The notes beneath the pieces are model-generated. The model made no database searches, was not told the origin of the DNA, and saw only the letters and a list, made by a program, of their open reading frames with translations. From Myxococcota bacterium (GTDB taxonomy: Bacteria > Myxococcota > XYA12-FULL-58-9 > JALHOP01), in the NCBI GenBank assembly GCA_022842935.1, contig JALHOP010000014.1, forward strand, positions 58,053 through 122,052: a stretch of DNA of 64,000 bases, written 5' to 3'. Within the stretch, counting starts at the first letter, position 1, and each line of letters opens with the position of its first letter. Positions 36,883 to 37,890 of this stretch are shown here, piece by piece. A program made the position numbers and the translations under genes.

Positions 36883-37890
36883 CTAGCGCGTAATGAGCTC
36901 GGCAAAATCCGCCATCGACGCCGCGACGACCTCGAAGCTTTTTTCGCCGTAACCTGTCTCATGGGAGAGGAACACGACGGCACCGCCTTGATCGAGGTCG
37001 AGCAGGAAGTGATTGCCTTGGCCGTCTGATGCGAACGCGCGGTAGCGCTTCGGGTCGAACCCCGGCCAGTCGTTCGGGCTGTCGTGATAGGCGTCGAGCC
37101 AAGTCTCGTCTTCCCCCTCGAGATAGCTCAAGCCACGGAAGCTTCCACTCTCTGGCGCTTCGGTGAGCCACGCCTTTACCTGCTTCGCGCTCGCACGTTT
37201 ACGTGCCGGAGGCGCGGCGATCGACGCAATGGGCTGTGGCAGGGCCTTGGCGTGCTCGAGCGACAACGCACGGATACGTTGGGAGAGCGGGGAGTTCTTC
37301 TTGTCCTCCGGAAAAGCACCGTAGTCATAGAGGGCAAACCACCAGATGCCACTAAAGGCCTGCGCGGCGAGAGCTTCGGCGAGGCGCATGCTCGCGATGT
37401 GGACGCGCCGAAAGCGAGCGAACTGAAAAAGCGCTCGCTGCGGGTCCGACGCCATCACGATGCGTTTGACGTCACCAATGCCCTTGCCCAAGAGGTCGGG
37501 CTTGGTCTCGCAGGCGGCGTCGTCGAGACAATCGGGCCGATCGATGCAGTTCACCATGAAGTACGGCAGACCGATGGGCGTTCCGTTCCACGTCAGCGTG
37601 AACGGCAAGTACTCGACGTGGGTCACGCCGTTGCTCGCAAGCGCTGTCTTGAGCCTTTCGGAGACGAAGAGAAGCCCGTTGGTGTTCAGTACGCAGTCCG
37701 CGATAGCGGGCTTGTTGGGGTTGCCGTCCTGCAGGGTGGCGAGTCCGCCGTCGCCCCACCGCGGCATGAGTGGCTCACCTTTGTTGAGCTCGAAGCCTTT
37801 GACCCCTGCCGGGGGGGTCACATGGTCGATATCGAAAGCGCCTTTGACGCTGGTTGGACTCCACCGGACGTAAAACTCGTCGAAGCTCAT
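36883..37890 (-). CDS. SUKH-superfamily (SMI1/KNR4-like) immunity-type protein with N-terminal unknown domain
   Basis: 335 aa. C-terminal GNHFLLDLDQGGAVVFLSHETGYGEKSFEVVAASMADFAELI matches the SMI1/KNR4 signature; N-terminal about 130 aa is a separate domain. Confidence 0.6.
   Translation of the reverse strand: MSFDEFYVRWSPTSVKGAFDIDHVTPPAGVKGFELNKGEPLMPRWGDGGLATLQDGNPNKPAIADCVLNTNGLLFVSERLKTALASNGVTHVEYLPFTLTWNGTPIGLPYFMVNCIDRPDCLDDAACETKPDLLGKGIGDVKRIVMASDPQRALFQFARFRRVHIASMRLAEALAAQAFSGIWWFALYDYGAFPEDKKNSPLSQRIRALSLEHAKALPQPIASIAAPPARKRASAKQVKAWLTEAPESGSFRGLSYLEGEDETWLDAYHDSPNDWPGFDPKRYRAFASDGQGNHFLLDLDQGGAVVFLSHETGYGEKSFEVVAASMADFAELITR

Follow-up and report, generated by a model that had tools for sequence, protein, structure and literature searches.

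What is a gene for an immunity-type protein doing by itself, with no toxin gene beside it, in a run of housekeeping genes? The question is raised by positions 36883–37890 of a 64,000-nt stretch of Myxococcota DNA (the window, to which all inspection of this genome was confined), where an open reading frame (ORF) on the minus strand encodes a protein of 335 amino acids (aa). We find that the ORF is a genuine gene, that the N-terminal half of its product forms an entire Imm11 domain, about 190 residues long, and that the C-terminal half is, by profile and predicted fold, a SUKH-1 (SMI1/KNR4) domain of about 100 residues. Because the N-terminal domain is Imm11, the gene, here called Imm11-SUKH, encodes a two-module polyimmunity protein. 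An earlier note, made from the letters of this DNA, had described an orphan SUKH immunity-type gene with a distinct N-terminal domain; it was right in outline and is partly supported by the results below. The gene and its parts are as follows:

36883–37890, minus strand: Imm11-SUKH gene, ATG at 37890, TAG at 36883–36885, 335 aa, stop included in the coordinates (ORF list, sequence, homologues, hydropathy, isoelectric point (pI))
37321–37890, minus strand: Imm11 domain, residues 1–190; the Pfam core, residues 65–184, is 37339–37698 (profile, fold and family matches)
37189–37320, minus strand: basic linker, residues 191–234, pI 11, one helix at residues 201–214 (predicted secondary structure, per-segment identity, pI)
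36886–37188, minus strand: SUKH-1 (SMI1/KNR4) domain, residues 235–335, pI 4.5; the Pfam match, residues 253–330, is 36901–37134

Two immunity-type modules in one protein

The N-terminal region, which had been set down as an unknown domain of about 130 aa, is larger and belongs to a described family. PF07791 (Imm11, DUF1629) matches residues 65–184 at 27.8 bits, against a gathering threshold (GA) of 22.1 (E 1.9e-6), and it matches all nine family members (best E 4.6e-11). A family profile run against PDB sequences matched a single one, 6a4c, which is MXAN_0049 (E 2.2e-15), and the full-length AlphaFold2 (AF2) model (predicted local distance difference test (pLDDT) 88.6) aligns with the same structure in Foldseek over 190 columns (E 2.9e-11, probability 1.00, template modelling (TM) score 0.67 normalised to the target). 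By both routes the N-terminal domain has the Imm11 fold of MXAN_0049. Its extent follows from a profile search run exhaustively over 1.84 billion representatives, which gave 1154 matches: about 10 clusters (at 50% identity) bear the SUKH part, and all the others are Imm11 proteins that stand alone, measure about 195 aa and cover profile positions ~3–193, so that the N-terminal ~190 residues make up a complete Imm11 domain.

MXAN_0049 (Imm1) is an experimentally characterised immunity protein of Myxococcus xanthus, where, in kin discrimination, it binds the AHH nuclease MXAN_0050 and so neutralises it (PMC12077131, PMC12077181, PMC6627406). It has the PF07791 family and fold in common with our N-terminal 190 residues, at about 20% identity, and both proteins are cytoplasmic, soluble and from Myxococcota. 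They part in architecture and setting: MXAN_0049 is a single domain of about 215 aa whose gene lies directly downstream of its toxin in a type VI secretion system (T6SS)/PAAR locus, whereas our protein adds a linker and a SUKH domain, and its gene has no toxin neighbour, being directly downstream of no AHH, SHH or HNH toxin gene.

For the C-terminal half, a check against the SMI1_KNR4 profile (PF09346) gave a significant match to residues 253–330 (E 2.3e-5), marginal in that its 25.4 bits equal the GA of 25.4. The same profile matches all eight homologues that possess the region (E ≤ 0.01, best 5.7e-6), and SUKH_6 matches our protein below threshold. An AF2 model of residues 228–335 alone (pLDDT 90.5, predicted TM score (pTM) 0.83) has the SUKH alpha+beta fold. 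The SUKH call of the earlier note therefore stands, and its length of 60 residues gives way to about 100. Known SUKH-1 (SMI1-KNR4) immunity proteins, such as RhsPI (8bd1_B, the partner of an RhsP WHH nuclease), YobK (2prv) and 3d5p, have 130–160 aa against the ~100 aa here, and the domain in the window differs from them further in being fused behind another immunity domain with no toxin adjoining. Linkage to a polymorphic toxin, a feature of immunity-type SUKH genes, is not seen; the nearest toxin-like gene, for a PT-TG protein, is 14 kb away. When homologues were sought by a word-indexed search with the C-terminal profile, the sole match was P0020, a fragment of a split member of the family, and no stand-alone protein closely related to this SUKH domain turned up.

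The whole product is acidic (pI 5.4) and predicted to be soluble, with neither a signal peptide nor a transmembrane segment by hydropathy. These properties, together with the acidic SUKH domain, are as expected of a cytoplasmic nuclease inhibitor. Promoter and terminator scans gave nothing informative.

Unrelated immunity domains combined in one chain were described in 2012 as polyimmunity proteins, which are, by the same account, usually without a linked toxin (Zhang, de Souza, Anantharaman, Iyer & Aravind 2012, Biol Direct 7:18; PMC3482391). That survey gives SUKH at least eight other immunity domains as fusion partners and Imm11 three, its text naming SuFu and Imm23 for Imm11; it links Imm11 to Tox-AHH, Tox-HNH and Tox-SHH and SUKH to a large number of toxins, among them SHH, WHH and LHH of the HNH fold, with Tox-SHH the one family listed as a partner of both (PMC3482391). 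The Imm11-SUKH protein belongs to this class. It joins two structurally unrelated immunity domains, Imm11 (residues 1–190) and SUKH (residues 235–335), in one polypeptide, and no toxin gene is associated with it in the window or in at least seven homologue contexts. The likeness extends to relatives that adjoin further immunity genes (L002, L015 and L017). What differs is the locus: polyimmunity genes tend towards small loci of two to three immunity genes in tandem, a pattern seen in L002, L017 and L015, whereas the window holds a lone insertion in a housekeeping region.

The combination is also rare. Besides an identical entry in the NCBI whole-genome shotgun set LNFM01 and in a Joint Genome Institute (JGI) metagenome, a homologue search over 5.8 billion proteins returned eight homologues at 46–67% identity, seven of which align end to end with the same N-terminus; one is publicly named ‘SMI1/KNR4 family protein’ (NCBI), its Imm11 half overlooked. 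Related loci come from Myxococcota metagenome-assembled genomes (MAGs), among them Kofleriaceae and Myxococcaceae, and a pattern scan was positive in 3 of 185,579 species genomes. Pairwise identity averages 53% in Imm11, 60% in SUKH and 43% in the linker, the least conserved part; the SUKH domain, with 31 of 101 columns invariant, is the most conserved. Per-segment identity thus points to constraint on both domains.

Two observations on relatives concern the modularity of the protein. An Imm11-only protein of 238 aa (P0009; L007 8190–8906 and L013 10001–10717) is 80–83% identical over the common part to a fused protein (P0006; L009 2559–3572), which indicates, at the level of sequence, that the SUKH module was lost or gained recently; in both L007 and L013, a gene for an Exo_endo_phos lipoprotein diverges from the Imm11-only gene. 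In L015 (3360–4417) the homologue is divided between two ORFs, one of 136 aa (Imm11) and one of 184 aa (linker-SUKH), with a 92-nt gap equivalent to ~31 missing residues, the cause being a frameshift, a pseudogene or an assembly error.

Such a split bears on whether the gene is a decaying remnant of a former toxin–immunity cassette, non-functional after loss of the toxin. That no toxin adjoins the gene would fit this account, and the L015 homologue is a hint that a frameshift or decay has occurred in one lineage at least. We nevertheless consider it very improbable: the ORF in the window is intact and native-like in GC content at third codon positions (GC3), both domains are conserved in eight full-length homologues with many invariant residues, and the AF2 models are confident (pLDDT 88.6 and 90.5).

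A single-gene difference between relatives

The only close homologue of the 178-aa protein encoded just upstream led to a second Myxococcota MAG, GCA_041288095.1 (L016), which is collinear with the window at 29–43 kb: 13 flanking genes follow in the same order at 70–95% aa identity, and a further 150-aa ORF in the collinear stretch is 44% identical. L016 is without a segment of 1158 bp made up of the Imm11-SUKH gene and the spacers on its two sides, and the membrane-protein gene and the 95-aa ORF have overlapping stops there. The spacers are:

37891–37977, minus strand: upstream intergenic spacer, 87 bp, with a GAGAGAG Shine-Dalgarno-like run ahead of the ATG (sequence, L016 comparison)
36820–36882, no strand assigned: downstream spacer, 63 bp, separating the convergent stops of the 95-aa ORF and the Imm11-SUKH gene and holding a short hairpin, GCCTCTTTTCCGGGCAGAGGC, at about 36827–36847 (read from the sequence)

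We conclude that the Imm11-SUKH gene is a single-gene presence/absence polymorphism. In the earlier note, repeat-flanked loci elsewhere in the window had been taken as a sign that this genome exchanges toxin and immunity modules. Those loci, which encode a PT-TG protein and a 456-aa protein and have short direct repeats, are broadly consistent with exchange, but nothing connects them with the Imm11-SUKH gene; its own presence or absence relative to L016 is the stronger evidence.

None of the marks of a mobile element could be detected at the borders of this indel: target-site duplications and terminal inverted repeats are missing, the flanks share only chance-level 8-mers, and no integrase, border repeat or plasmid homologue of the gene was found. 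Nor is there a local GC anomaly (GC3 0.77 for the gene, 0.76–0.85 for its neighbours). In being a toxin-less immunity-type gene that is present in one close relative and missing from another, the gene resembles orphan or acquired immunity genes; it differs from orphan immunity islands in being a single gene with no mobile-element hallmarks found.

The comparison also disposes of one candidate partner. The 178-aa membrane protein has no family match, and it is kept in L016, in the same gene order, without Imm11-SUKH; it is therefore part of the conserved backbone and is ruled out as a toxin partner.

A second gene, separated from Imm11-SUKH by the conserved 95-aa ORF, shows the same pattern: a 201-aa lipoprotein (35880–36485, plus strand; lipobox VAGC, sub-threshold DUF3558 match) is likewise missing from L016. 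Because two single-gene indels lie beside the same ORF, the site around it may be a small hotspot for accessory genes.

Contexts of the family and a putative function

As the earlier note had seen, no toxin gene adjoins Imm11-SUKH. Upstream on the same strand lie the gene for the 178-aa protein with two transmembrane segments, 87 bp away, and genes for a coiled-coil protein of 314 aa and an LpxL-like acyltransferase. Downstream and convergent are the 95-aa ORF, the lipoprotein, two SPFH proteins and Ccm cytochrome-c maturation genes; more distant parts of the window hold, among others, Tol-Pal, a peptide ABC transporter and LexA. Of the ORFs scanned within 14 kb of the gene, none has a recognisable toxin domain, and none of those scanned across the whole window has an AHH- or HNH-type domain.

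The orphan status that had been proposed also holds in relatives. Contexts of fused or closely related members (L002, L003/L012, L007/L013, L009, L011, L014, L015 and L017) include at least seven independent ones, and across these no recognisable toxin was found. All-against-all BLAST of the first five groups (L002, L003/L012, L007/L013, L009 and L011) and the window found no common neighbour; the products of genes that flank the homologues range over ribonucleotide reductase, a molybdopterin oxidoreductase, TldD/PmbA and malate:quinone oxidoreductase. L016 has the surrounding genes without Imm11-SUKH itself. A recurrent link to endonuclease/exonuclease/phosphatase (EEP)-type nucleases was also considered and ruled out: an ExeM/NucH-like gene of the window and the Exo_endo_phos lipoprotein of L007/L013 are not detectably similar, none of the other loci compared in this respect has such a gene, and L016 keeps the ExeM gene without the immunity gene. 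A more distant, canonical Imm11 protein of 195 aa, P0022, is encoded directly downstream of an AHH gene.

Three of the contexts carry extra immunity-type genes: a tandem Imm11 paralogue in L002, a stand-alone SMI1_KNR4 gene 3 kb from the homologue in L015 (7515–8000, minus strand) and a stand-alone SUKH gene 1.6 kb downstream of the fused gene, on the same strand, in L017. The last of these loci, from a low-GC relative (L017 723–4945; also L018 and L019), has the fused gene within a same-strand cluster that runs from a 312-aa beta-propeller-like protein, the stop of whose ORF overlaps the start of the fused gene, through Imm11-SUKH and proteins of 190 aa and 170 aa to a 214-aa stand-alone SMI1_KNR4 protein. 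The 190-aa and 170-aa proteins are paralogues (26% identity, E 6e-10), and PDB sequence searches with two of the three small flanking proteins (312, 190 and 170 aa) gave no match. The cluster is probably a small heterogeneous polyimmunity locus, and its small proteins may be an undescribed immunity family.

Could the gene protect against a toxin of its own genome that is encoded elsewhere, such as a distant AHH/SHH toxin or the PT-TG protein 14 kb away? The window does hold a PT-TG toxin (51800–57175) and a protein with the same N-terminal module (43855–45225), so the genome deploys toxins; myxobacterial genomes are rich in ahh loci (PMC12077181), and our search spanned 64 kb. The toxin and immunity genes of a pair, however, nearly always lie side by side in the same orientation. 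The PT-TG protein has a small ORF of its own downstream (51259–51792), and its C-terminus bears no HNH/AHH signature and matches only, and faintly, a UbiB/kinase-like family. Collinear L016 is without the Imm11-SUKH gene, and the homologues sit in unrelated toxin-less contexts. With no linked toxin and an accessory gene, protection from a toxin of its own is thus most likely not what the gene provides, and we regard this account as unlikely.

A role outside conflict has also to be weighed, in which the protein is a domesticated adaptor, its Imm11 and SUKH folds co-opted as protein-binding modules for a cellular function. SUKH proteins have been co-opted elsewhere, as in Syd (which binds SecY), Knr4/Smi1 and FBXO3. 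In favour of such domestication are the clear purifying constraint on both domains across 46–67% identity and a family that is consistently solitary among housekeeping genes. The distribution speaks against it, for the family is patchy and rare (about 10 clusters among the 1.84 billion representatives, 3 of the 185,579 species genomes), the gene is missing from its close collinear relative L016, the SUKH module has been lost in a near-identical relative, and extra Imm11 or SUKH genes lie nearby in L002, L015 and L017. Patchiness of this kind is typical of accessory conflict genes and not of a core function, and we hold a domesticated role to be improbable.

The reading that we favour, and consider somewhat better than even, is that Imm11-SUKH is an accessory, cytoplasmic, bivalent polyimmunity protein that would pre-emptively neutralise incoming nuclease toxins of the HNH/EndoVII fold; missing toxin adjacency is a trait of polyimmunity and orphan immunity genes alike. 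We infer toxin binding, toxin class and ecological role from related proteins. Each module would block its toxin by stoichiometric protein–protein binding. By family precedent, the Imm11 module would bind AHH, SHH or HNH nucleases of the HNH/EndoVII fold, and the SUKH module either a second toxin or one of the same class, its family's range including the HNH-fold toxins SHH, WHH and LHH. The protein could in this way provide pre-emptive (‘orphan’) immunity against nuclease toxins from other myxobacteria. In Myxococcus, AHH toxins are delivered through the T6SS or by outer-membrane exchange (the SitA5 family), and recent work indicates that divergent Imm11 proteins cross-protect. Many ahh loci occur per myxobacterial genome, and M. 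xanthus DK1622 has 14 ahh loci and 20 imm11 genes (PMC12077181).

Several points weigh against this proposal. Binding and specificity are argued wholly by analogy. In M. xanthus, imm11 genes are ‘always’ downstream of a toxin (PMC12077181), a rule that the gene in the window and its subclade break. The Pfam score of the SUKH domain is exactly at threshold, and a search of PDB sequences with the C-terminal profile gave no meaningful match and no SUKH structure, so membership leans largely on the predicted fold. The SUKH domain's conservation (60% mean identity, 31% of columns invariant), unusually high for an immunity module, and the housekeeping neighbours would also fit a domesticated, non-immunity role, and the part of the genome inspected was 64 kb.

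A bolder version of bivalency, which we put forward as a long shot, is that the two modules together clamp nucleases of a single HNH/EndoVII-fold class, making the gene a horizontally shuffled, single-gene ‘vaccine’ and not two separate shields. It would explain why the subclade, close Imm11-only members included, is always toxin-less and why the SUKH domain is unusually conserved. If true, it could confer unusually broad cross-immunity to AHH/SHH-type toxins delivered by the T6SS or by outer-membrane exchange.

AHH–Imm11 pairs are a dominant kin-discrimination currency of myxobacteria. A toxin-less Imm11-SUKH gene that varies between close relatives may be a case of acquired cross-immunity, or ‘cheating’, among Myxococcota in nature, and its product is a compact reagent with which the breadth of Imm11 and SUKH specificity could be probed. 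The gene fits the polyimmunity concept of 2012, a picture that it refines and does not change.

Other toxin-like loci in the window

The PT-TG protein is encoded by a 1791-aa ORF (51800–57175, minus strand), the true start of which is probably M63 (‘MQVTSPTGDSF’). Its pre-toxin domain at residues 1190–1243 (E 3.8e-8) places it, by sequence, among polymorphic-toxin-type proteins. The C-terminal ~540 aa have no Pfam toxin match; they give a faint match to UbiB/atypical kinases (E 0.031), and two kinase-like modules can be made out by eye. Directly downstream, a 177-aa ORF (51259–51792) is the candidate immunity gene.

A 456-aa protein (43855–45225, minus strand) has its N-terminal ~60 residues in common with the PT-TG protein, with weaker similarity over 242 aa (34% identity, E 3e-22); the counterpart at the DNA level is repeat D1 (135 nt, 72%), within 43855–45225 and 56800–56990. 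One leader module on two distinct C-termini is a polymorphic-toxin pattern, and the 456-aa protein matches Tox-PLDMTX faintly (E 0.033). As cognate toxins of Imm11-SUKH, the PT-TG and 456-aa proteins are unsupported candidates: they lie 6–14 kb away with downstream ORFs of their own, and because neither bears an HNH/AHH-type domain, nothing ties them to the gene.

Both loci are bounded by short direct repeats. A 100-nt repeat (85%; 42740–42839 and 45403–45502) flanks the 456-aa gene and a glycosyltransferase gene and contains a second copy of the final 38 codons of the ExeM/NucH-like nuclease gene, which suggests that a cassette was inserted at the 3′ end of that gene. A 47-nt repeat (87%; 51738–51784 and 57283–57329) flanks the PT-TG gene and encodes ‘RIELARD(L/F)YD(T/K)AI’, a segment that is N-terminal in the 177-aa ORF and lies close to the C-terminal end in an extracytoplasmic function (ECF)-sigma/DUF6596 gene (57218–58468); it looks like an insertion or recombination scar.

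The nuclease gene itself (41060–42874, plus strand), kept in L016, encodes a 604-aa ExeM/NucH-like extracellular endonuclease that matches NF033681 (NCBIfam) at E 6e-23, below the cut-off, and Exo_endo_phos weakly. Near the start of the window, ahead of several large ORFs without family matches (2303–8163), a 487-aa protein (583–2046, plus strand) carries a domain like that of SseC, a type III secretion translocator (E 5.9e-9).

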